From NCBI GenBank assembly GCA_963747695.1, contig CAVVFV010000010.1:325618-389617 (forward strand): a stretch of 64,000 nt of DNA, given 5' to 3'. The position numbers and the translations under genes were made by a program. A model generated the notes under the pieces. It worked only from the letters and a program-made list of their open reading frames with translations, ran no database searches and was not told the origin of the DNA. Shown here one piece after another: positions 6,896-61,612 of the stretch; the stretch's first letter is position 1, and every line of letters begins with the position of its first letter. This stretch comes from Candidatus Falkowbacteria bacterium. Its GTDB lineage: Bacteria; Patescibacteriota; Patescibacteriia; Patescibacteriales; WJLG01.

Positions 6896-6940
6896 GGACT
6901 CGCCAGTGGATGAACCCCCGGCGCCCGGTCGGACTTGCCC
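6896..6940 (-). repeat. tRNA-associated double-hairpin element, copy A (5'-truncated, degenerate)
   Basis: Minus-sense gtccgaccgggcgccgggggttcatccactggcgagtcc matches copies at 23224-23270 and 55761-55806. It is flanked by gggcaa (6886-6891) and ttgccc (6935-6940). Confidence 0.6.
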
Positions 6941-6960
6941 CGCCCCATTTACGTTTTTTG

Positions 6961-7034: not shown

Positions 7035-7049
7035 CCATTATTAAATAAT

Positions 7050-7204
7050 GGTAATTAGACAAATGGGGCGGGGTGAATAAACCGGATGCTCTAACCCGCC
7101 TCGACGAGCTGAAACTCGTCTTCGGCGAGGCGGGCCAACTGAGCTAATTACCCTGAATGCTCCCTGTCCCGCCGTGGCGGGATAACCAGTTGAGCTATAA
7201 GCCC
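7050..7204 (-). pseudogene. Two tRNA 5'-fragments (D-arm consensus) interrupted by GC-rich hairpins
   Basis: Minus-sense GGGCTTATAGCTCAACTGGTTA (7204-7183) is followed by hairpin cccgccacggcggg. GGGTAATTAGCTCAGTTGG (7153-7135) is followed by a 40-nt hairpin (7095-7134), then TTAGAGCATCCGGTTTAT. Neither fragment completes a cloverleaf. Confidence 0.45.
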
Positions 7205-9094: not shown

Positions 9095-9244
9095 ATAAAT
9101 TCATCTTATCACCGGCCAGCGACAAACTCAATGTCATATTACATAAAATCCAAGATTCTAAGCACTAAATCCTAAACAAGCACAAAAATTCAAAATACAA
9201 AATTAGGAAACGTTTTGAATTTATGATTTTGAGCTTTGAATTTA

Positions 9245-9290
9245 GTCCCCTTTTGGGAGGGGTGGCCGCGCCGCGCGGACGGGGTGGGTT
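9245..9290 (+). repeat. E1 GC-rich palindromic repeat, copy 2
   Basis: gtccccttttgggaggggtggccgcgccgcgcggacggggtgggtt, upstream of smc. Confidence 0.8.
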
Positions 9291-22660: not shown

Positions 22661-22795
22661 AATAAAAGTATAACAAAAAATTGCTTAAACAGCGATTTTC
22701 ATAAAAAAGAGAATAATTTCTAAACCCGTCTGCCGTTATCTCAAAAGCGACCTTTTTAATACAAAGACAGCTCCAATATTGGCGCTGTCTCATGT

Positions 22796-23047
22796 AGCGG
22801 AGTGGGCGGGATCGTTCCCTCGCGGCTCTCGCCTCGCTCCTGACCAGTTCGAGCCCCTGAACGAGCCAAGGGGTTGACTTACATGAGCTGCGGTCGCGCT
22901 CGCGTCGCTTCCGCTCCGCTCACTTGTCCAGAGGCAGCGCCGACCTGCCCCCGGCAGGTCGTCGGCCGCTCGCCTGCGTCTGCCGCCGCCGGAATTGCGG
23001 CGGCAGACGCGTCTCGCTCCTGCAGTTCGAGTCCCGCTTCCTCACAA
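22796..23047 (+). repeat. GC-rich T-loop-ended units U1 (partial) and U2 (full, about 22863-23047)
   Basis: Both end in CTCGCTCCTG(AC)CAGTTCGAG(C/T)CCC. U2 aligns block-by-block with the minus-strand units at 55201-55365 and 55401-55571. 22796-22811 repeats 15 of 16 nt of the tRNA-Asp 3' end region. Confidence 0.7.
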
Positions 23048-23092
23048 CTCAAATTTAAAACAGCCCCGAATAGGGGCTGTTTTAAATTTGAG
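23048..23092. terminator. Bidirectional terminator shared by tRNA-Asp and unit U2
   Basis: Perfect hairpin ctcaaatttaaaacagcccc-gaat-aggggctgttttaaatttgag abutting the tRNA-Asp 3' end. Confidence 0.75.
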
Positions 23093-23166
23093 CGGAGTGG
23101 ACGGGACTCGAACCCGCGACCTCTTCCGTGACAGGGAAGCGTTCTAACCAACTGAACTACCACTCC
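23093..23166 (-). tRNA. tRNA-Asp (anticodon GTC)
   Basis: GGAGTGG/CCACTCC acceptor, CTTCC-CTGTCAC-GGAAG anticodon arm, GCGGG-TTCGAGT-CCCGT T arm. 74 nt. Confidence 0.9.
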
Positions 23167-23223: not shown

Positions 23224-23283
23224 GGCCTCGCCAGGGGATGAACCCCTGGCGCCCGGTCGGATGACCGGGCGAACTACCACTCC
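23224..23283 (-). repeat. Double-hairpin element copy B fused to an exact 13-nt copy of the tRNA-Asp 5' end
   Basis: Minus-sense GGAGTGGTAGTTC (23283-23271, identical to 23166-23154) followed by gcccggtcatccgaccgggcgccaggggttcatcccctggcgaggcc. Confidence 0.75.
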
Positions 23284-42646: not shown

Positions 42647-42661
42647 TAACGCGTTAAAAAA

Positions 42662-42707
42662 GTCCCCTCTTGGGAGGGGTGCCGAGCCCGGCGAGGCGGG
42701 GTGGGTC
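42662..42707 (+). repeat. E1 repeat, copy 3
   Basis: gtcccctcttgggaggggtgccgagcccggcgaggcggggtgggtc, 16 nt after the glyA stop. Confidence 0.85.
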
Positions 42708-42724
42708 TATTCCCGACATTATTT

Positions 42725-43795
42725 ATGGTTGAAATAATTGTAAATTTAGAAAAAAATGGGTATCCGATAAAAATTGGGATGGGCATTGTTGCTGAAGAAA
42801 ATTTCAAAAAATTCGGTTGCGATAAATGCGCTATTATCACGGATTCAAATGTCGAGAAACTTTACGCCAAAGATTTGGAAAAAAAATTAAATCAAGACGG
42901 GGTTATTTCGGAAATATTTAGTTTCCCGGCCGGCGAGACGTCAAAAACATTTGCCACGGTTATTTCGCTCGGCCGGAAAATGATCAAAAGCGGTTTTGGC
43001 AGAAATTCGCTGATAATCGCTTTGGGAGGCGGGGTGGTCGGGGATATTGCTGGATTTTTGGCCTCGATTTACGAAAGAGGAATCAAATTTGTCCAGATAC
43101 CGACAACTCTGCTGGCACAAGTCGATAGCAGTATCGGGGGGAAAACCGGAGTTGATACTCCCGAAGGAAAAAATTTACTCGGGACTTTTTATCAGCCGCA
43201 GACCGTAATATGTGACATTAATTTTTTGTCGACTTTGCCAAAAAAAGAAATCAAAAATGGCTGGGCGGAATTAATAAAAGATGGGATGATCAAAGATAAT
43301 CGATTTTTTGAATTTTTACAAAAAAAACATTCAAGTCTCGATGAAAAAGATCTAGCGGCAATCATTACCAGCGCGGTCGGGATAAAAGCGAAGATTGTAA
43401 GCCAGGATGAAAGGGAGTCGGGAGAAAGAATCATTTTAAATTACGGACATACAATCGGCCATGCGATAGAAACGATTGAGAACTATAAGATTTCCCACGG
43501 CGAGGCGGTCGCGTTGAGAATGATTTATGAAGGAAAAATTTCTTCCTTGCTTGGTTATTTGACTGCGGCAGATTTAAAAAAACAAAATGAACTCATCCTC
43601 TCGGTCGGTTTACCGGTAAATTATCGAGGTAATATTGATAAATTGATTGAAATAATGCGGCGGGACAAAAAGGCGCTGGATAGCAATCCGCATTTTGTTT
43701 TGCCGATAAAAATCGGAGCGGTTAAAAATGAAGGAACTAAATTTGCTTTTGCCGTTGAAGAGAAGATAATAAAAAGGGCCTTAGAATCGAGATAA
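42725..43795 (+). CDS. aroB: 3-dehydroquinate synthase
   Basis: GGGVVGDIAGFLASIYERGIKFVQIPTTLLAQVDSSIGGKTGV and NYGHTIGHAIE. The ATG at 42725 is used because the track GTG at 42701 lies inside the E1 repeat. Confidence 0.9.
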   Translation: MVEIIVNLEKNGYPIKIGMGIVAEENFKKFGCDKCAIITDSNVEKLYAKDLEKKLNQDGVISEIFSFPAGETSKTFATVISLGRKMIKSGFGRNSLIIALGGGVVGDIAGFLASIYERGIKFVQIPTTLLAQVDSSIGGKTGVDTPEGKNLLGTFYQPQTVICDINFLSTLPKKEIKNGWAELIKDGMIKDNRFFEFLQKKHSSLDEKDLAAIITSAVGIKAKIVSQDERESGERIILNYGHTIGHAIETIENYKISHGEAVALRMIYEGKISSLLGYLTAADLKKQNELILSVGLPVNYRGNIDKLIEIMRRDKKALDSNPHFVLPIKIGAVKNEGTKFAFAVEEKIIKRALESR

Positions 43796-43808
43796 GGTAA
43801 AATAATAA

Positions 43809-43852
43809 ACCCACCCCGCCTCGCCGAGCTCGGCACCCCTCCCAAGAGGGGA
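43809..43852 (-). repeat. E1 repeat, copy 4 (inverted relative to copy 3)
   Basis: The reverse complement tcccctcttgggaggggtgccgagctcggcgaggcggggtgggt differs from copy 3 at a single position. Confidence 0.85.
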
Positions 43853-43887
43853 TTTTAAAAAGCGTTACGGGTTACGCGTTATGAGTT

Positions 43888-52644: not shown

Positions 52645-52688
52645 ACCCACCCCGTCCGCGAGGCGCGGCCACCCCTCCCAAGAGGGGA
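52645..52688 (-). repeat. E1 repeat, copy 5
   Basis: Reverse complement ttcccctcttgggaggggtggccgcgcctcgcggacggggtgggt. Flanked by AT-rich aattagcat/attcgc word arms. Confidence 0.85.
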
Positions 52689-54121: not shown

Positions 54122-54583
54122 ATGTCAGTCCTAGCGGTAAACAAAAGAGCGACATTTGATTATGAAGTTCTGGATAAATATGAAGCCGGGCTGGTTTTGT
54201 TCGGCCATGAAGTCAAATCGGTACGCGCCGGCAATGTTAATTTGAAAGCAGCCTATATCACTTTAAGAACTGATCACGCCGGTTTGCCCGAAGCTTATCT
54301 GATCAACGCCCACATCTCTTTATATAAATATGCCAGCACGATTAAAGATTATGATCCGACCCGTTCGCGCAAACTTTTATTGAAGGCTAAAGAAATCAAA
54401 TATTTGTTAGGAAAAACCAAAGAGCAAGGCTTGACTTTAGTGCCATTGCGTATCTATACTAAGAACAGAATTTTGAAATTGGAATTCGGTTTAGCGCGCG
54501 GCAAGAAGAAATTCGACAAGCGCGAAGACCTCAAGAAAAAAGACCTTGACCGCGAATCTCGCGCGATGATGAAGCGATATTAA
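54122..54583 (+). CDS. smpB: SsrA-binding protein SmpB
   Basis: NKRATFDYEVLDKYEAGLVLFGHEVKS. Adjacent to ssrA. Confidence 0.95.
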   Translation: MSVLAVNKRATFDYEVLDKYEAGLVLFGHEVKSVRAGNVNLKAAYITLRTDHAGLPEAYLINAHISLYKYASTIKDYDPTRSRKLLLKAKEIKYLLGKTKEQGLTLVPLRIYTKNRILKLEFGLARGKKKFDKREDLKKKDLDRESRAMMKRY

Positions 54584-54594
54584 AAGATTTAACA

Positions 54595-54696
54595 CACCCC
54601 GTCGCCGCGGCGGCGCCACCTCCGCCTCGGCCCGCCTTGCTGAAGCTTTGGCGAGGCAGGCAAGCCTTGGGCGAGACGGGCCTCTCAAGAGGGGAA
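54595..54696 (-). repeat. E1-related repeat, copy 6 (long, degenerate)
   Basis: Begins caccccgtcgccgcgg and ends cctctcaagagggga. The central part is a longer imperfect palindrome (gcctcggcccgccttgc...gcaagccttgggcgag). Confidence 0.6.
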
Positions 54697-54764
54697 TCTA
54701 AACACCGAACTTTGACAATAAAATAATTTGTAATTTTTAATTCTTAATTTGTAATTGATTGAAA

Positions 54765-55142
54765 GGGGATGCCAGGCTTCGATGACAAGAATTATTGCTA
54801 ATACTCAAGGCGTGTCGGATTTCACGTAAAACGGTCCAAAATCACAATTGCGAACAAAATCGCTCGCGGAGCCGCCTTCACTTGGAAGGTTCCGGCTTTC
54901 GCGCCTGTTGCCGCTTAATACCGGCAGCCATTTCGCCTTCTGACTCCTCTGGGGAGGTGGGAGTGTCATTTTAGAGGATCAGGTTGCCAGTGTCGGCTCT
55001 TAGACTGGCAACCGAAACTAAATAGGGCTCGCCATTATTTTTTCGCCTTGCTTTTAGGTAATGGTCAAACTCAAGCTGGGCTAAACTTGTAGTAGTATTA
55101 TCAATAACTTGCCAGACGCGGGTTCAATTCCCGCCATCTCCA
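54765..55142 (+). ncRNA. ssrA: tmRNA (SsrA)
   Basis: 5' GGGGATG pairs with 3' CATCTCC. T arm GCGGG-TTCAATT-CCCGC. Tag reading frame 54850-54918 (GCG AAC ... GCC GCT TAA) gives ANKIARGAAFTWKVPAFAPVAA. Adjacent to smpB. Confidence 0.9.
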
Positions 55143-55143
55143 C

Positions 55144-55193
55144 AAGGTATTTTTTTGTATTTTTTTTGCTAAAAAAATACAAAAAAATACCTT
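55144..55193. terminator. 50-nt perfect palindrome, bidirectional terminator after ssrA
   Basis: aaggtatttttttgtatttttttt-gc-taaaaaaatacaaaaaaatacctt. Confidence 0.75.
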
Positions 55194-55200
55194 GCTGAAT

Positions 55201-55365
55201 GGTGCGGGAATTGAACTGGTCAGGAGCGAGGCAATGGCCGCGAGGGAACGAGCGGCCGGCAGCCGAGCGTCCGCCAAGCATTCGGGGAATGCTTGGCGCT
55301 GACCCTGGACGAGGGAACGAGCCGCTTTCCGGCGGCGAGTGACCGAGCAACGGTACCCAGACATG
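55201..55365 (-). repeat. GC-rich T-loop-ended unit U3
   Basis: Minus-sense catgtctggg...gtccagggtcagcgcc[hairpin]...ctcgctcctgaccagttcaattcccgcacc. Paralogous to U2 and U4. Confidence 0.7.
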
Positions 55366-55400
55366 TTTTTTTAAAAAGTTTTACCATTTTATTTGCAGAT

Positions 55401-55571
55401 TGCCGCGGCGGGAATTGAACTGGTAGCGAGCGAGATATGAGGTGAGGCGGAAGCCGAGTCGAATAATCGAGCGACGCCGGACGCGACCCAAGGGAGCGTT
55501 TGGCGGCAACTCTGGACGAAGGAGCGAGGCGGAATTCCGCCGCCGAGCGACTGAGACGGCAGTTCAGATGG
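55401..55571 (-). repeat. GC-rich T-loop-ended unit U4
   Basis: Minus-sense ccatctgaac...gtccagagttgccgcc...ctcgctcgctaccagttcaattcccgccgcggca. Confidence 0.7.
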
Positions 55572-55629
55572 ATAGTTTTATACTTTTAGTTTTTTAGTGT
55601 AAAATGTATACATTATTAAATGTTAAGTT

Positions 55630-55713
55630 GGTCCAGTGGCGGAACTGGTATACGCGCAGCACTTAAAATGCTGTGTCCGCGAGGGCATGTGGGTTCGAGT
55701 CCCACCTGGACCA
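55630..55713 (+). tRNA. tRNA-Leu (anticodon TAA)
   Basis: GGTCCAG/CTGGACC acceptor, CAGCA-CTTAAAA-TGCTG anticodon arm, variable arm TGTCCGCGAGGGCAT, GTGGG-TTCGAGT-CCCAC T arm. 84 nt. Confidence 0.9.
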
Positions 55714-55751
55714 CAGGTAATTTTTTGCGAAGTTTTTTAAACCTTTGCAAT

Positions 55752-55817
55752 AAGGGTTCGCCCGGTCATCCGACCGGGCGCCCGGGGTTCATCCCCGGGC
55801 GAGTCCCTCCCGGACCA
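55752..55817 (+). repeat. Diverged copy of the tRNA-Leu 3' end with double-hairpin element copy C inside the T-loop
   Basis: aagggttcg[cccggtcatccgaccggg cg cccggggttcatccccggg]cgagtccctcccggacca, compared with the genuine 3' end gtgggttcgagtcccacctggacca 40-100 nt upstream. Confidence 0.75.
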
Positions 55818-55905
55818 CATAAATAAATTAAAAATTAAAAATTAAGAATTAAAAATGACAGCTTGATTTTTTTTGAGATCGCTGATATTATTGTATTTGT
55901 AATTT

Positions 55906-57264
55906 TTAACTTTTCATTTTTAATTGAATTTTGCGGGTATCGTATACCGGTATTATGCCACCTTGCCATGGTGGAGAAACGGGTCCAATTCCCGTTACCC
56001 GCTCACTAATCATACAAGCCTCTTTTTTAGGAATTTTTTTTAACGCGAAGCGCAGCTCCACGTAAGGTTTAATGGGCACAAATTTAAGTTTTCCGGTTTT
56101 TAAAAACAAGTTCGAGCCGCAAATTTTACGCAACGAAGATTTTTTGGAGGATAAGTCGCCAGTTTTCACTGTTTCATCCAATAAAACTGCATCTTTTATC
56201 CAATTTTGGAGAGGTTCGAGCCAAGCGACAACCCCCTTGTTTAAGCTGGCCATTTTTTCCTCTAAATCCCTCTTCTGTAAGACAAGCTTTCTCTTTTCTG
56301 CCCGATAAACCTCGCGGTCGATATCTTGCTCCAAAAGGGCATCAAGAAGGACACGGAGCTTGTTGGAAATGGCCGCTATCTCCGCTTTGATCGCTTGGCT
56401 CTCCGTGCCTGACGATTGGAGTGCCTCTTTTTCATCCTTTTCCGCCATCTTCAATAATTCTGTGGCGCAATCGGCAGGCAAAATGAACTCTTTTAGGATA
56501 TCCGGCAATTGGCCGGTTAAATCATCTTCTTTGACGCAGGGTTGGGAACAGGTCCCTCTTTTTTTTGTACAACGGTAATAAGCGTAGCGATGAACATTAC
56601 CGTTCTTTTGATGCTTAATTTTAACTTCTCCGGTTATGGCGCAACCGCACTCATCGCACCGGATAAGCCCGCAAAAAACTTTTGGCTCACCCTTTGGATT
56701 TTTAGGCGGTTTGCCACGCTCATTTAATACTTTTTGAACTTTATCAAAAAGCTGTTTGGATATAATCGGCGTATGTTTGCCTTCGTGAAGCTCTCCGTCA
56801 TAGCGAAACAAGCCGAAATAGAAAGTGTTGGTTAAAATATACGTCACGCGGTCGCGCGATATGGTTTTGCCAGATCTGGTATGGATGCCGCGCTCGGCCA
56901 AAAATTTCGCTACGTCCTCAAGGCGGGTGTCGCCATTGGCGTAATACTCAAACGCTTCGCGAACGGCTTTCGCGATTTTTTTGTCGACGACAATCGTCTT
57001 GTATCTCCGGTCGTTGAAATAGCCGACGGGCGCGCGCGAAGGATATTCGCCGTTTTTAACTTTTTCATTAAGGCCGCGCCTGGTGTTTGTGCTTAGGTCG
57101 ATAATAAACTGGTTGGCCATGCCAAACTCGACGCTCATCAGCAGAATATTGTCCGTCGAGCGATAACTGCGGTCGTGGGTTTGGATGTGCTGGATTATCC
57201 CCCGCTGGAGAAACCAGCTAATTTGCCCGCCGTCGACGGGTATAATGGTCCAGGAATCCTGCAC
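55906..57264 (-). pseudogene. Large serine recombinase, 5'-truncated by the IS element
   Basis: Recombinase domain (PVGYFND...ILTNTFYFGLFRY), zinc ribbon (CGLIRCDECGCAI...YYRCTKK) and coiled-coil are present. The N-terminal catalytic-Ser region is missing, and the reading frame abuts the IS left end. Confidence 0.75.
55933..56003 (+). tRNA. tRNA-Gly (anticodon GCC)-like, non-canonical T-loop
   Basis: GCGGGTA/TACCCGC acceptor, CCACC-TTGCCAT-GGTGG anticodon arm, ACGGG-TCCAATT-CCCGT T arm (C where U55 is expected), weak 3-bp D stem. It lies antisense inside the 3' end of the recombinase ORF. Confidence 0.6.
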
Positions 57265-57314: not shown

Positions 57315-57653
57315 ATGAGTAAACAAAACAAAGTATCCAAAGAAGAGAAAGCTAAGATCGTTCTAACCGTCCTGCGGGGCGAAAAGACTGTCAGCGAGAT
57401 TGCGGCGCAATACAGTGTTCATCCCAACCTGATAACCCGCTGGAAACAGACAGCCACCGAAAGCATGGCCGAGCTGTTTGAAGACAAGCGCAATAAGATT
57501 GAAAAAGACAAGTTTCAAGAGCAAGAACAACTGGTAGACAGGCTGTATAAATTGGTTGGCCAGCGAGACATTGAGCTCGACTGGCTCAAAAAAAAATTAT
57601 CAATCTTTGACGATGATCGACCGGCTAAAATTGGTCGACCGAGAAAATCCTGA
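57315..57653 (+). CDS. IS3-family transposase OrfA (HTH)
   Basis: KEEKAKIVLTVLRGEKTVSEIAAQYSVHPNLITRWKQ followed by a leucine-zipper-like region. Confidence 0.85.
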   Translation: MSKQNKVSKEEKAKIVLTVLRGEKTVSEIAAQYSVHPNLITRWKQTATESMAELFEDKRNKIEKDKFQEQEQLVDRLYKLVGQRDIELDWLKKKLSIFDDDRPAKIGRPRKS

Positions 57654-58521
57654 TATCACTCTGACCCGCCAGACTGAATTGCTGGACATCTCCCGCTCCC
57701 GCCTGTATTACCAGACCGAAGTCAGCGAGAGGGATCTGCTCATTATGAATCTGATTGATGAAATATATACGGAAAATCCAAGCTACGGCAAGAGGACGAT
57801 AGCGGCCATTATCAGGCGCGACCATAAAATTCCGGTTGGTAAAAAACATGTCCGGACGCTAATGATCAAGATGGGTATTACGGCGATATATCCGAAGAAA
57901 AAGAGGGATTTGAGCCAGCCGGACAAACAGCATAAAATTTATCCGTATCTGCTCCGCGGACTATCAATCACCAGGTCGAATCAGGTTTGGAGCACGGATA
58001 TCACCTACATCAGATTAGAACACGGCTTCTGCTATTTAACGGCTATCATCGATTGGCATTCGCGCTATGTCATTGCCTGGGAATTGTCTAACACATTAGA
58101 TATCGATTTTTGCTTGCGAGTTCAAGAGCGAGCCTATGCCTTGGCAATCCCTGAGATTTTCAACTCTGATCAGGGCAGCCATTTTACCAGTCCGAAATTC
58201 ACCGCCGCCAGTCTGGAAAAAGGCGTCAAAATCAGCATGGACGGCAAAGGCCGCTGTTTGGACAATATCTTCATTGAGCGATTGTGGCGGACAGTTAAAC
58301 AGCAGGATGTTTACATCAAGCACTACGAATCGGTGGCTGAATGCCGAGCCGGCTTAACGAAATTTTTTGACAGCTACAACAATTACCGTCCGCATCAGTC
58401 GCTCAACTACCTTACTCCCGCCGAAGCCTATTTCGGCCAAAACAAAAAAACTGCCTTTACAGAGCAGCTTAATATACCAAGCTTTAATTTAAATGCCGTC
58501 CTGACCAACCCAACTATTTAA
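57556..58521 (+). CDS. IS3-family transposase OrfB (DDE integrase core)
   Basis: WSTDITYI (D), NSDQGSHFTS (D), IERLWRTVKQQ (E). Presumably expressed as an OrfAB fusion across the A9 run at 57588-57596. Confidence 0.85.
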   Translation: MASETLSSTGSKKNYQSLTMIDRLKLVDRENPDITLTRQTELLDISRSRLYYQTEVSERDLLIMNLIDEIYTENPSYGKRTIAAIIRRDHKIPVGKKHVRTLMIKMGITAIYPKKKRDLSQPDKQHKIYPYLLRGLSITRSNQVWSTDITYIRLEHGFCYLTAIIDWHSRYVIAWELSNTLDIDFCLRVQERAYALAIPEIFNSDQGSHFTSPKFTAASLEKGVKISMDGKGRCLDNIFIERLWRTVKQQDVYIKHYESVAECRAGLTKFFDSYNNYRPHQSLNYLTPAEAYFGQNKKTAFTEQLNIPSFNLNAVLTNPTI

Positions 58522-60397: not shown

Positions 60398-61612
60398 CTA
60401 TTTCTTTGTTATTACCTCCTTGCCATTTATGAATGGCCTGAGTGCTTCAGGAATGATTACATTCCCATCAGCGGTTTGGTTGTTTTCGAGGATGGCCAGT
60501 AGTACGCGGTCAGTTATCATGGTTGCGGAAATGGTGTGTGGGAAGAAGTTTTTCTCGCCCTTGACCCTGATTTTCAGCCTCCTTGTTTGAAAATCGAGAA
60601 GATTGGTATTGGAGTGTGTTTCCCGATACCCACCATAGCCAGCGAACCAGGCCTCTATGTCGTACTTTTTGTATCCCGGAGCGCCCATATCTCCCACACA
60701 AACATTTACCACGCGATAAGGAACTTCCAGGAGTTGCATGATACGCTCCTCATTCGCTAGGCAAATTTCATGAAACTTGGGAGAGTCATCGGGGTGGCAG
60801 AGTATAATCTGCTCCGTTTTGTGAAACTGGTGTACTCTGAATGCGCCCTTGGTTGCCTTGCCATAGGAACCAGCTTCGGTTCGAAAGCACGGCGTAAGCG
60901 CACAATACTTCAGTGGCAGGATCGCCTTGTCAAGAATCTCGTCCATATGGAAAGATACAAGTGTTTGCTCGGATGTTCCGATCAGGCTCGTATCTGTGTC
61001 AGAGATTCCGTAAAATTGATCCTTTGAGAACGGCAGGTAGCCCGTACCAAACAGGGTTTCCTTTTTTGCAACGATTGGGGTTAACATCAGGGTAAAACCT
61101 TGATTCAGCAGCATTTGCTGGGCAAGCTGAAAGATTGCCATAGCCAGGACAGCTCCGTCGCCGACCCAGTAATAAAAACCTGCGCCTGCCACTTTGCTCC
61201 CTCTGGCCAAATCAAGTATGCCGAGATTGACTCCGATAGTTTCGTGAGTTTGAGGTTTAAAGTCGAAATTTGGAACCTGTCCCCACTTTTTGATTTCGAC
61301 GTTATCAGCGTCGCTTTCTCCATCCGGGACATCCTCAGCAAGAATATTGGGCAGTTGCCTCCACATCTCGATTCGTTCCGCCTCGAGTTTTCCCGTGATC
61401 TCCTTCAGAATCCTGATTTCTCCTTTCAGGGAGTTATCAGCATTCTTGCCCAAAACTTTCCTTTGATGCTGTAATTCCTCCAGTTTTACCTTGTTCTTCT
61501 GAAGTTCGGTGTCTATTTCGAGTAGCTTATAGACATCAATCTCCATCTTGCGCCGCCTACAGATCTCGGCAATTAATGCCGGATCTCTTCTTAACAGTCC
61601 AAAGTCTATCAT
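60398..61612 (-). CDS. serS: Seryl-tRNA synthetase
   Basis: N-terminal coiled-coil arm, class II motif 2 FRTEAGSYGKATKGAFRVHQFHKTE, motif 3 region TISATMITDRVLLAILENNQ. 404 aa. Confidence 0.9.
   Translation of the reverse strand: MIDFGLLRRDPALIAEICRRRKMEIDVYKLLEIDTELQKNKVKLEELQHQRKVLGKNADNSLKGEIRILKEITGKLEAERIEMWRQLPNILAEDVPDGESDADNVEIKKWGQVPNFDFKPQTHETIGVNLGILDLARGSKVAGAGFYYWVGDGAVLAMAIFQLAQQMLLNQGFTLMLTPIVAKKETLFGTGYLPFSKDQFYGISDTDTSLIGTSEQTLVSFHMDEILDKAILPLKYCALTPCFRTEAGSYGKATKGAFRVHQFHKTEQIILCHPDDSPKFHEICLANEERIMQLLEVPYRVVNVCVGDMGAPGYKKYDIEAWFAGYGGYRETHSNTNLLDFQTRRLKIRVKGEKNFFPHTISATMITDRVLLAILENNQTADGNVIIPEALRPFINGKEVITKK

Follow-up and report, generated by a model that had tools for sequence, protein, structure and literature searches.

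Several described systems share, each in part, the properties of a family of GC-rich units, four of which (U1 to U4) lie behind a transfer RNA (tRNA) gene and behind the transfer-messenger RNA (tmRNA) gene ssrA in a 64,000-nt stretch of contig CAVVFV010000010.1 of Candidatus Falkowbacteria bacterium, hereafter called the window. We read U1 to U4, with a probability of roughly 0.6 for the statement as a whole, as a non-autonomous, site-specific insertion element of Patescibacteria that targets the T-arm of tRNA and tmRNA genes and whose structured strand, as RNA or as single-stranded DNA (ssDNA), carries the target-pairing segments. T-loop-class integrase islands and the tycheposons of Prochlorococcus share with the units the insertion at tRNAs, the regeneration of the gene, the partial copy of its 3' end and the serial accumulation of elements. 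Unlike those elements, the units contain no recombinase or other open reading frame (ORF), measure only about 220 bp, have a strand-specific structured core with an internal 11-mer complementary to the T-arm of the target, and use many tRNA species with near-identical cores. As to the hallmarks of T-loop-class integrative elements, a tRNA 3' repeat with a regenerated gene is found in the family, not at U3 and U4, and a tyrosine or serine recombinase of their own is missing, the serine recombinases seen at 8 of 95 loci being separate insertions.

Group II introns with their exon- and intron-binding sites (EBS/IBS), the bridge RNA of IS110 and the omega RNA of IS200/IS605 likewise employ a structured RNA of about 150–200 nt with target-matching segments, and, as in bridge-RNA guides, the two target-matching segments of the units could address opposite strands. 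Unlike in these guide-bearing systems, the match to the target lies at the ends of the unit and is accompanied by a duplication of 17 nt, such as is not known from those systems. From group II introns the units differ by the lack of intron domains and splice-site motifs, by their length of about 165 nt and by their boundaries, which differ from the 5' GUGYG and 3' AY of these introns, and no Rfam intron model matched them. Genes for a DEDD recombinase, TnpB or IscB do not recur within about 5 kb of the units, where the neighbours are housekeeping genes, and omega-RNA families were presumably among the Rfam models that left the units unmatched. Integron attC sites resemble the units in that structure counts over sequence, in that one strand matters and in that new units enter proximally, pushing older ones outward. 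In contrast to attC, the ends of the units, judged by eye, do not fit RYYYAAC/GTTRRRY, the core sequence is strongly conserved and the point of entry is the T-loop of a tRNA; a non-exhaustive check of the recurrent ORFs of the loci found no cluster of IntI or other tyrosine recombinases. Finally, miniature inverted-repeat transposable elements (MITEs), repetitive extragenic palindromes and bacterial interspersed mosaic elements (REP/BIME) and short interspersed nuclear elements (SINEs) are, like the units, short, protein-less, multi-copy and structured, and the flanking duplication is of SINE-like length. Unlike all of these, the units have inverted repeats of 6 nt only, an absolute specificity for the T-arm, a fixed orientation and no A-tail, and the 17-nt duplication together with the lack of an autonomous partner among the recurrent ORFs sets them apart from MITEs. 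We file the units under the known class of tRNA-targeting insertion elements, as a new form that stands outside any named family.

The units of the window and their family

The ssrA gene (54765..55143, plus strand; ARAGORN, and Rfam RF00023 with 145.5 bits) lies between smpB (54122–54583) and the genes for tRNA-Leu(taa) (55630–55714, plus strand) and tRNA-Gly(gcc) (55933–56004, plus strand). Two full-length members of the family follow it on the plus strand, U3 (55204..55364; cmsearch 81.8 bits, E=2e-22, model positions 1–162) and, distal to U3, U4 (55408..55572; 93.9 bits, E=6e-26), which, being distal, is probably the older insertion. The third full-length member, U2 (22878..23037, minus strand; 61.9 bits, E=1e-16), is co-oriented with the gene for tRNA-Asp(gtc) (23092–23166, minus strand; ARAGORN), the target of both U2 and U1. 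The latter (22741..22859, minus strand; 14.5 bits, E=0.008) is an internally deleted older member distal to U2 and also forms an inverted repeat, I5, with U3. Beyond U1 to U4 the 64-kb window holds no match to the model used here. A first-pass annotation, made from the letters of the window alone, had placed U2, U3 and U4 within a few bases of these borders and had recognized them as paralogs. It had also noted their high GC content, which is 0.62–0.72 as compared to 0.445 for the window, and their contact with palindromes. U3 adjoins a perfect 24+24-bp A/T-rich palindrome in the spacer to ssrA (55143..55194; inverted repeat I20, 100% complementary) and U2 abuts a palindromic hairpin at 23039–23101 (minus strand; inverted repeat I16); members of the family carry such a hairpin at the tRNA-proximal end. 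Having few G-C pairs, the palindrome at 55143–55194 is not predicted to be an intrinsic terminator, and two related loci, L071 and L098 (L-numbers denote related loci throughout), have unrelated perfect palindromes at the equivalent position.

Patterns made from the conserved blocks of the first-pass annotation were used in one genome scan and one metagenome scan, which gave 3 genome contigs and at least 120 metagenome contigs; about 108 of the matches listed lie in low-GC contigs and clearly form one family, and the figures given for the family rest on the matches listed. With the first genome-scan pattern 17 of 20 matches were chance occurrences in GC-rich genomes, L011, L013 and L019 being the only real ones. 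Since MAFFT and RNAalifold applied to all copies recovered one helix only, a hand-drawn structure on 15 seeds was needed, and the covariance model R1 was built with Infernal from these 15 metagenomic copies, no unit of the window being among them. R1 finds at least 129 copies (121 distinct) in 699 kb of low-GC contigs, with a unit core of about 165 nt and a whole insertion of about 220 bp. The blocks that had been noted in the window, CTCGYTCC..GTCCAGRG, the GCGCC box with its hairpin and CTCGCTC..CAGTTCRAnTCCC, recur throughout the family.

The units belong to no known RNA family, as had been suspected: a search of the whole window with Rfam 15 at the gathering threshold returned only the tmRNA and six tRNAs, and at E<=10 the region 54400–56200 gave only chance miRNA-type matches on the palindrome that touches the edge of a unit. 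No tRNA-like gene was found in the units by ARAGORN or by the Rfam tRNA model; the 5' strand of the T-stem is absent and only nt 53–63 and nt 58–74 of the adjacent gene are copied. That the ORFs across the units are not credible proteins is borne out by the family: among 109 copies none of the frames stays open in more than 56%, and the internal lengths are distributed evenly over the three remainders modulo 3. A phage origin was rejected after zero matches in 2.9 million viral contigs, and full-text literature searches found no description of such elements. The family is large, absent from Rfam and from the searched literature, and stands behind tRNA and tmRNA genes of Patescibacteria, also called the candidate phyla radiation (CPR).

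Position and match to the neighbouring gene

An upstream neighbour could be assigned to 79 units, and all of them share its orientation; 64 stand directly behind a tRNA or tmRNA gene and 15 behind another unit, and none of the 129 matches listed follows a tRNA of the opposite strand. Another 13 units lie at contig ends, and most of the remaining 37 matches are preceded by unrelated DNA, then 7–16 nt of a tRNA 3' end, a hairpin and the unit; the unrelated DNA is a later insertion. The targets comprise at least 21 tRNA species and tmRNA, among the matches listed.

The T-loop-like segment of the units is an inverse-orientation, 11-nt copy of G53 to C63 of the adjacent gene. Identity to the adjacent tRNA is 96–100% over nt 53–63, drops to 56% at nt 64 and is random from nt 65 onwards. 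At the three informative positions, 57, 59 and 60, all bases match the unit's own neighbour in 50 of 54 non-redundant units, with 10.5 expected and 0 of 10,000 permutations reaching this number, which upholds the earlier tie to tRNA and tmRNA genes and the neighbour-specific likeness of the segment. In the window, the T-loop and 3' T-stem strand of tmRNA read GTTCAATTCCC (55122–55132), and the inverse copy in U3 and U4 is the 11-mer GGGAATTGAAC, at 55206–55216 and 55410–55420, respectively. Read on the minus strand, 55206–55218 and 55410–55422 give CAGTTCAATTCCC, which repeats tmRNA 55122–55132 inversely and without the 5' T-stem strand, just as the annotation had described it. Similarly, plus-strand positions 23025–23035 of U2 read GTTCGAGTCCC, identical to the T-loop and 3' T-stem strand of tRNA-Asp, and U1 keeps a T-loop copy, TTCGAGCCCC, as well as a degenerate fragment of the tRNA-Asp 3' end, GCGGAGTGGGCGGGATC, from 22797 (14 of 17 positions identical to tRNA-Asp). 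In the gene for tRNA-Gly(gcc) the T-loop departs from the canonical TTCRAWT and reads TCCAATT (window 55984–55990; L071 1985–1991); of the tRNAs of the window this one scores lowest with the Rfam tRNA model. The unit behind this gene in L071 carries the exact complement, GGGAATTGGAC (2062–2072), and the related U4, standing behind ssrA with its T-loop TTCAATT, carries GGGAATTGAAC.

On their distal side most units have a direct repeat of the tRNA 3' end that extends from A58 to usually C74. The modal length is 17 nt (tRNA nt 58–74), with 19–20 nt where the match happens to run on into CCA or trailer bases. Of 54 units, 30 have a perfect repeat, and in 38 its identity is 88% or more. The core is bordered by GGGAWT and AWTCCC, inverted over 6 nt and derived from the T-arm of the target, and the junction between core and repeat varies by 0–3 nt. 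Two further ideas on these borders were rejected. The tail that follows the 11-mer is probably no fresh inverted copy of the acceptor strand, as its identity is 56% at nt 64 and random past it, with no strand bias in the transitions (88 versus 76); a few tails do resemble copies of the acceptor strand that decayed from GC to AT. An invertible switch of T-arm and 11-mer found its flipped state in 0 of 77 testable units, and L019 is better explained by extension of the palindrome than by such a switch.

Fold and strand of the core

The conserved core of about 150 nt folds into a three-way junction, in which helix P2 closes P3 and P4, followed by the hairpin P5. P2 is a covarying GGUUGG/CCAACC helix. 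In P3, helices of 3 bp alternate with tandem G.A pairs to form a rod, with a GGAA loop at its tip in 67 of the 121 copies. P4 consists of C-G, G-C, a tandem G.A and a fully variable stem of 9 bp, after which comes the conserved junction CUGGACAA; GCGAGCGCG is a second conserved junction. P5 begins with G-C, U.G and a tandem G.A, continues as another variable 9-bp stem and is followed by GCGAGCGCGRAA. In U3, P2 is formed by 55218–55223 with 55299–55304, P3 extends over about 55226–55267, P4 over about 55268–55298 and P5 over about 55313–55344, with the junction CUGGACGA at 55305–55312. In U4 the corresponding elements are 55422–55427 with about 55506–55511 for P2, about 55430–55472 for P3 with its GGAA loop at 55449–55452, about 55475–55505 for P4, which contains G.U pairs, and about 55521–55551 for P5. 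The P3 domain of U4 is common to the units behind tRNA-Gly in L071, L011 and L013 (alignment A4).

Over the 40 modelled pairs 91.4% of the alignment cells are paired, as compared to 66.2% after shuffling, and 0 of 500 shuffles reach this value. Compensatory double changes occur in all 40 pairs (1158 cells versus 315 expected), and pairing falls to 30–38% when the partner columns are slid by 1–3 positions. The hairpin that had been noted for its constant position and unrelated stems is P4, in which 11 of 11 pairs show double compensatory changes among the 121 distinct copies.

Which strand is structured? On the strand of the tRNA, G.U pairs outnumber A.C oppositions 179 to 56, and one pair of P5 is conserved as U.G (51 U.G versus 36 C.G). 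Tandem G.A/A.G pairs mark the base of P3 in 113–118 of 121 copies and that of P5 in 101–103 of 121; elsewhere in the fold they can be replaced by Watson-Crick pairs. Of 82 units, 79 have the lower minimum free energy on the tRNA-sense strand, and an excess of 2.25 kcal/mol that depends on base order persists when dinucleotide-shuffled sequences are taken as the reference (59 of 82 units, p=9e-6). Because of the G.U excess, the tandem G.A pairs, the GGAA loop and the folding energies, the structured strand is probably that of the adjacent tRNA or tmRNA gene, which is the plus strand for U3 and U4. The better plus-strand pairing that had been noticed for one hairpin of U4 proved to be the rule in the family. 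With the strand the polarity changes as well: the segment that had been taken for a T-loop-like 3' end lies at the 5' end of the structured strand, where it is the complement of the T-loop.

Insertion polymorphism and arrays

L011 and L013 are orthologous loci with the genes for ssrA, tRNA-Leu and tRNA-Gly in this order. The site behind tRNA-Leu is empty in L011 (...tcttgtGCCGCGGGAGGGAATCGAACCC), and in L013 the same site is filled by an insertion of 222 nt that lies between copies of the 19-nt repeat TTGTGCCGCGGGAGGGAAT. The tRNA-Gly gene of L011 is directly followed by a new hairpin and a newer unit, and an older hairpin and the remnant of the older unit are displaced outward. Judged by sequence comparison, mainly of L011 and L013, arrays appear to grow at the tRNA-proximal end, with the proximal unit being the newest. 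The spacing between ssrA and tRNA-Leu is 2–19 nt in seven relatives, 486 nt in the window and 707 nt in L071. The window, L071 and L098 have an identical tmRNA tag, yet palindromes, tails or cores behind ssrA differ between them. By its DnaA the organism of the window falls into Patescibacteria, near Candidatus Falkowbacteria. In a relative with 92% identical DnaA the tRNA-Asp gene is followed by a different, shorter GC-rich unit and a truncated U2-like copy. Cores that are 94–97% identical stand behind different tRNAs (Gln and Ser; Trp and Ser), and in each case the 11-mer and the repeat match the unit's own neighbour. Internally deleted copies exist as well (U1; L141).

The first-pass annotation had considered that the units could be the attL and attR flanks of integrative elements. 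The part of this idea that holds is the presence of att-like repeats of tRNA 3' ends; the units themselves are complete insertions of about 220 bp and not flanks of larger integrative elements. No protein genes recur by the units except those for large serine recombinases, at 8 of 95 loci. That the units are the distal end of such serine-recombinase elements was rejected, since the two have different junctions and it is the recombinase element that separates the tRNA from an older unit.

How could the units enter a tRNA gene and leave it unbroken?

In the sense of the target gene the order is intact tRNA, new palindromic hairpin, tail of about 12 nt, 11-mer and core of about 150 nt, followed by the 17-nt direct repeat of tRNA nt 58–74 and by the old trailer and terminator of the gene. 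On our reading the element would enter the T-loop by splitting it at nt 57/58 or, equivalently, would enter directly behind nt 74, nt 58–74 being copied; the target tRNA would stay intact and gain a new hairpin. The functional form would be the G-rich strand, most likely as a 3'-trailer RNA read through from the promoter of the tRNA or tmRNA gene; alternatively, the same strand could act as ssDNA. Read-through would be the simplest source of the RNA, because no promoter-like site is predicted for U3 and U4 on either strand and the A/T palindrome behind ssrA is no canonical terminator. The 11-mer and the first six bases of the 3' tRNA copy are complementary to each other (GGGAWU/AWUCCC), and the two segments could also pair with the two strands of the T-arm, acting as specificity determinants, which would explain why both stay matched to the target while the tail does not. 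Catalysis would be supplied in trans, with a recombinase or a reverse transcriptase as candidates. Target-primed synthesis by a reverse transcriptase is compatible with the duplication of 17–20 nt and the 0–3-nt variability of the junction; no reverse transcriptase was seen in the loci examined. If, as in integrons, a recombinase took a folded single strand as its substrate, the constraint on structure would be accounted for. Copying of a cDNA primed by the tRNA is not supported, as it predicts an encoded CCA but most repeats end at C74 without CCA. All models need homogenisation or modular exchange of cores to account for near-identical cores behind different tRNAs; the cores would be homogenised or exchanged between copies, and the flanks would be local.

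A narrower version of this scheme, possible but distinctly tentative, takes the units as the RNA component of a target-guided insertion system, processed from the 3' trailer of the tRNA or tmRNA transcript. The 5' 11-mer would pair with one strand of the T-loop and T-stem and the 3' 17-mer with the opposite strand, and this pairing would direct a recombinase or reverse transcriptase acting in trans to insert at nt 57/58 with the gene being rebuilt. Such units would constitute a SINE-like or bridge-RNA-like bacterial element without a gene of its own.

Several points weigh against reading the units as T-arm-targeting insertion elements with a functional structured strand. The pattern used for the metagenome scan fixed most of the 11-mer, leaving positions 57, 59 and 60 as the only informative ones, and the pair counts are biased toward the tRNA-sense strand, as the structural alignment follows a model of that strand. 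G-rich composition alone accounts for about two thirds of the 7 kcal/mol advantage of that strand. The 17-nt repeat is absent in 11 of 54 units, U3 and U4 among them: U4 has no flanking repeat, and U3 lacks a 17–19-nt repeat of the tmRNA 3' end such as the 19-nt repeat ATTCCCGCCATCTCCACAA that its homolog behind the same tmRNA has in L071. The fragments in L114, L132 and L118 mismatch the adjacent tRNA and, thus, may travel with the element rather than arise as a target duplication. Copies that agree almost fully in the core differ completely in tail and hairpin, which calls for the extra assumption of gene conversion of the core or of modular recombination. Furthermore, the structured strand may act as RNA or as ssDNA, with the model accommodating both, a catalytic partner was not found among the recurrent ORFs of the loci, and a stagger of 17 nt is unusual for DNA transposases.

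If T-arm-targeting insertion is true, Patescibacteria carry an abundant class of tiny elements for which tRNA and tmRNA genes serve as landing sites without being broken, and the family would be a concrete candidate for a new nucleic-acid-guided insertion mechanism, with a target that is present in every cell. This reading would explain the GC-rich islands in AT-rich spacers and the spurious Ala/Arg/Pro-rich ORFs over RNA genes, as well as the partial tRNA copies and the variable spacing in the ssrA–tRNA-Leu–tRNA-Gly cluster, which is conserved otherwise.

Alternative explanations

Among the alternatives the one that survives best, although still unlikely, is that the units are decayed or cis-mobilisable mini-elements of a tyrosine or large serine recombinase that integrates in the T-loop or the 3' end of the tRNA, the core being a double-stranded DNA (dsDNA) attP arm rich in sites for protein binding, in which a folded single strand has no part. 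A direct repeat from T-loop to 3' end with a regenerated tRNA is the textbook signature of integrases, elements accumulate in tandem at tRNAs as integrase elements would, and serine-recombinase-only elements of about 2.6 kb stand at the same tRNA ends at 8 of 95 loci and in the window. However, strand-asymmetric covariation, G.U pairs, tandem G.A pairs and GNRA-type loops are unexpected for dsDNA binding sites, more than 90% of the units have no integrase inside or adjoining, and the recombinase elements have different ends and repeats of 8–16 nt and sit between the tRNA and an older unit. An element that carries its own nt 58–74 would in addition create chimeric genes when changing from one tRNA to another, yet near-identical cores adjoin intact genes for tRNA-Gln and tRNA-Ser, and the junction between core and repeat is not fixed. 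A classical dsDNA integrase explains the repeat but neither the structure nor the near-identical cores at different intact tRNAs.

Improbable is, furthermore, the idea that the units are cis-acting trailer RNAs of benefit to the host, whose role could lie in processing, termination, quality control or antisense sequestration of the T-arm and whose spread would be due to local duplication and gene conversion, not to transposition. Such a role would fit the strict co-orientation with the tRNA, the constant position directly behind it and the lack of a predicted promoter of their own, and the fact that the 11-mer stays complementary to the T-arm next to a random tail suggests selection in cis. 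The distribution speaks against it: presence differs between close relatives at the same gene, most orthologous tmRNA–tRNA-Leu junctions do well without a unit, there are tandem arrays and internally deleted copies (U1; L141), and 21 tRNA species are affected with precise 17-nt duplications.

The weakest explanation is the one that the first-pass annotation had favoured, independent small RNA (sRNA) genes of about 170 nt on the minus strand, antisense to the tRNA sense and convergent with ssrA or the tRNA, with a T-loop mimic near the 3' end; the units do end at a palindromic hairpin with A and T runs, possibly a bidirectional terminator, and this shared-hairpin arrangement is constant, but the antisense strand folds worse in 79 of 82 units, the 179 G.U pairs would become A.C mismatches, tandem G.A would turn into U.C/C.U and the GGAA loop into UUCC, no promoter-like site is found upstream of U4 or U3 on the minus strand, and the upstream side in the antisense direction holds only a tRNA fragment and another hairpin, so that we consider it very improbable.

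Other elements and probable insertions, mostly at tRNA genes

On the insertion reading, the 3' ends of tRNA genes would be shared hot spots for at least three kinds of insertion, the units described above, smaller GC-rich units and serine-recombinase mini-elements. A second, smaller GC-rich repeat with the core CCCGGTCATCCGACCGGGCGCCCGGGGTTCATCCCCGGGC and two hairpins occurs in the window at 55756–55806 (plus strand), 23224–23274 (minus strand) and 6896–6933 (minus strand), and in L071 at 1722–1775. Behind tRNA-Leu it is surrounded by a partial direct copy of the 3' end of the tRNA, in the order GGGTTCG, core, GAGTCCC..GGACCAC, and in L071 this partial copy shows no difference from tRNA-Leu. 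The copy of the repeat beside tRNA-Asp is joined to a copy of the 5' end of the tRNA, GGAGTGGTAGTTC. From its sequence this repeat looks like another T-loop-targeting mini-element of a different design. Upstream of tRNA-Val (7040–7200, minus strand; 6940–6955 and 7064–7078) there are two pieces that resemble tRNA 5' halves, GGGCTTATAGCTCAACTGGTTA.. and GGGTAATTAGCTCAGTTGG.., each with a GC-rich hairpin in the D-loop, and the inverted repeats CCCCGCCCCATTT and AAATGGGGCGGGG bracket the intact tRNA-Val gene.

Elements of about 2.6 kb (L076 160–2770; also in L034, L093, L031, L022, L114, L117 and L025) encode, as the sole protein with recognised domains, a full large serine recombinase (in L076 at 1264–2775) that has the Resolvase, Recombinase and Zn-ribbon domains. 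These insertions separate a tRNA gene from an older unit and are flanked by 8–16-nt repeats of the 3' strand of the acceptor; the end of the recombinase ORF overlaps the tRNA 3' end and the distal end reads ..TTGGAAC... About a fifth of the units are followed by such a recombinase-element junction. In the window a truncated gene for a large serine recombinase (55906–57264, minus strand) has the Recombinase and Zn-ribbon domains and lacks the N-terminal resolvase domain. Its 3' end runs antisense across tRNA-Gly; the gene starts directly after ..CCCGCTCAC, where L071 has a hairpin and a U4-type unit, and upstream it is interrupted by an IS3-like element with HTH_Tnp_1 and rve ORFs (57315–58521, plus strand). 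A second copy of the tRNA-Gly 3' end was not found in the window, so that the far end of the recombinase island was not located; the gene for seryl-tRNA synthetase at 60398–61612 suggests a return to core genome by about 60 kb.

A 110-nt segment with 69% GC (54585–54694), located downstream of the smpB stop codon and ahead of the ssrA promoter, is absent from the orthologous spacer in L098 and different in L071; it is probably another GC-rich insertion, unrelated to the R1 family. In L071 the spacer from the ssrA unit to tRNA-Leu is enlarged by a further insert of about 450 nt (1130–1570), which may contain a small ORF; at the coordinates taken it does not translate cleanly. At L141 (1890–2025) and L142 a unit of about 95 nt, termed type C, stands behind the tRNA-Asp gene of a close relative. 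It keeps the layout of the larger units, with a tRNA fragment, GC-rich hairpins with CTCGCT motifs, the T-loop copy TTCGAGTCCCG, a tail and a palindrome, but scores only 6–10 bits with R1, and the element design seems to exist in several size classes. A third family of GC-rich repeats, TCCCCTCTTGGGAGGGGTG..GGGGTGGGT, is found at gene ends (2177–2202, 9241–9289, 42659–42711, 43804–43856 and 52645–52688), two inverted copies of which, 94% complementary to each other, bracket the ORF at 42701–43795.

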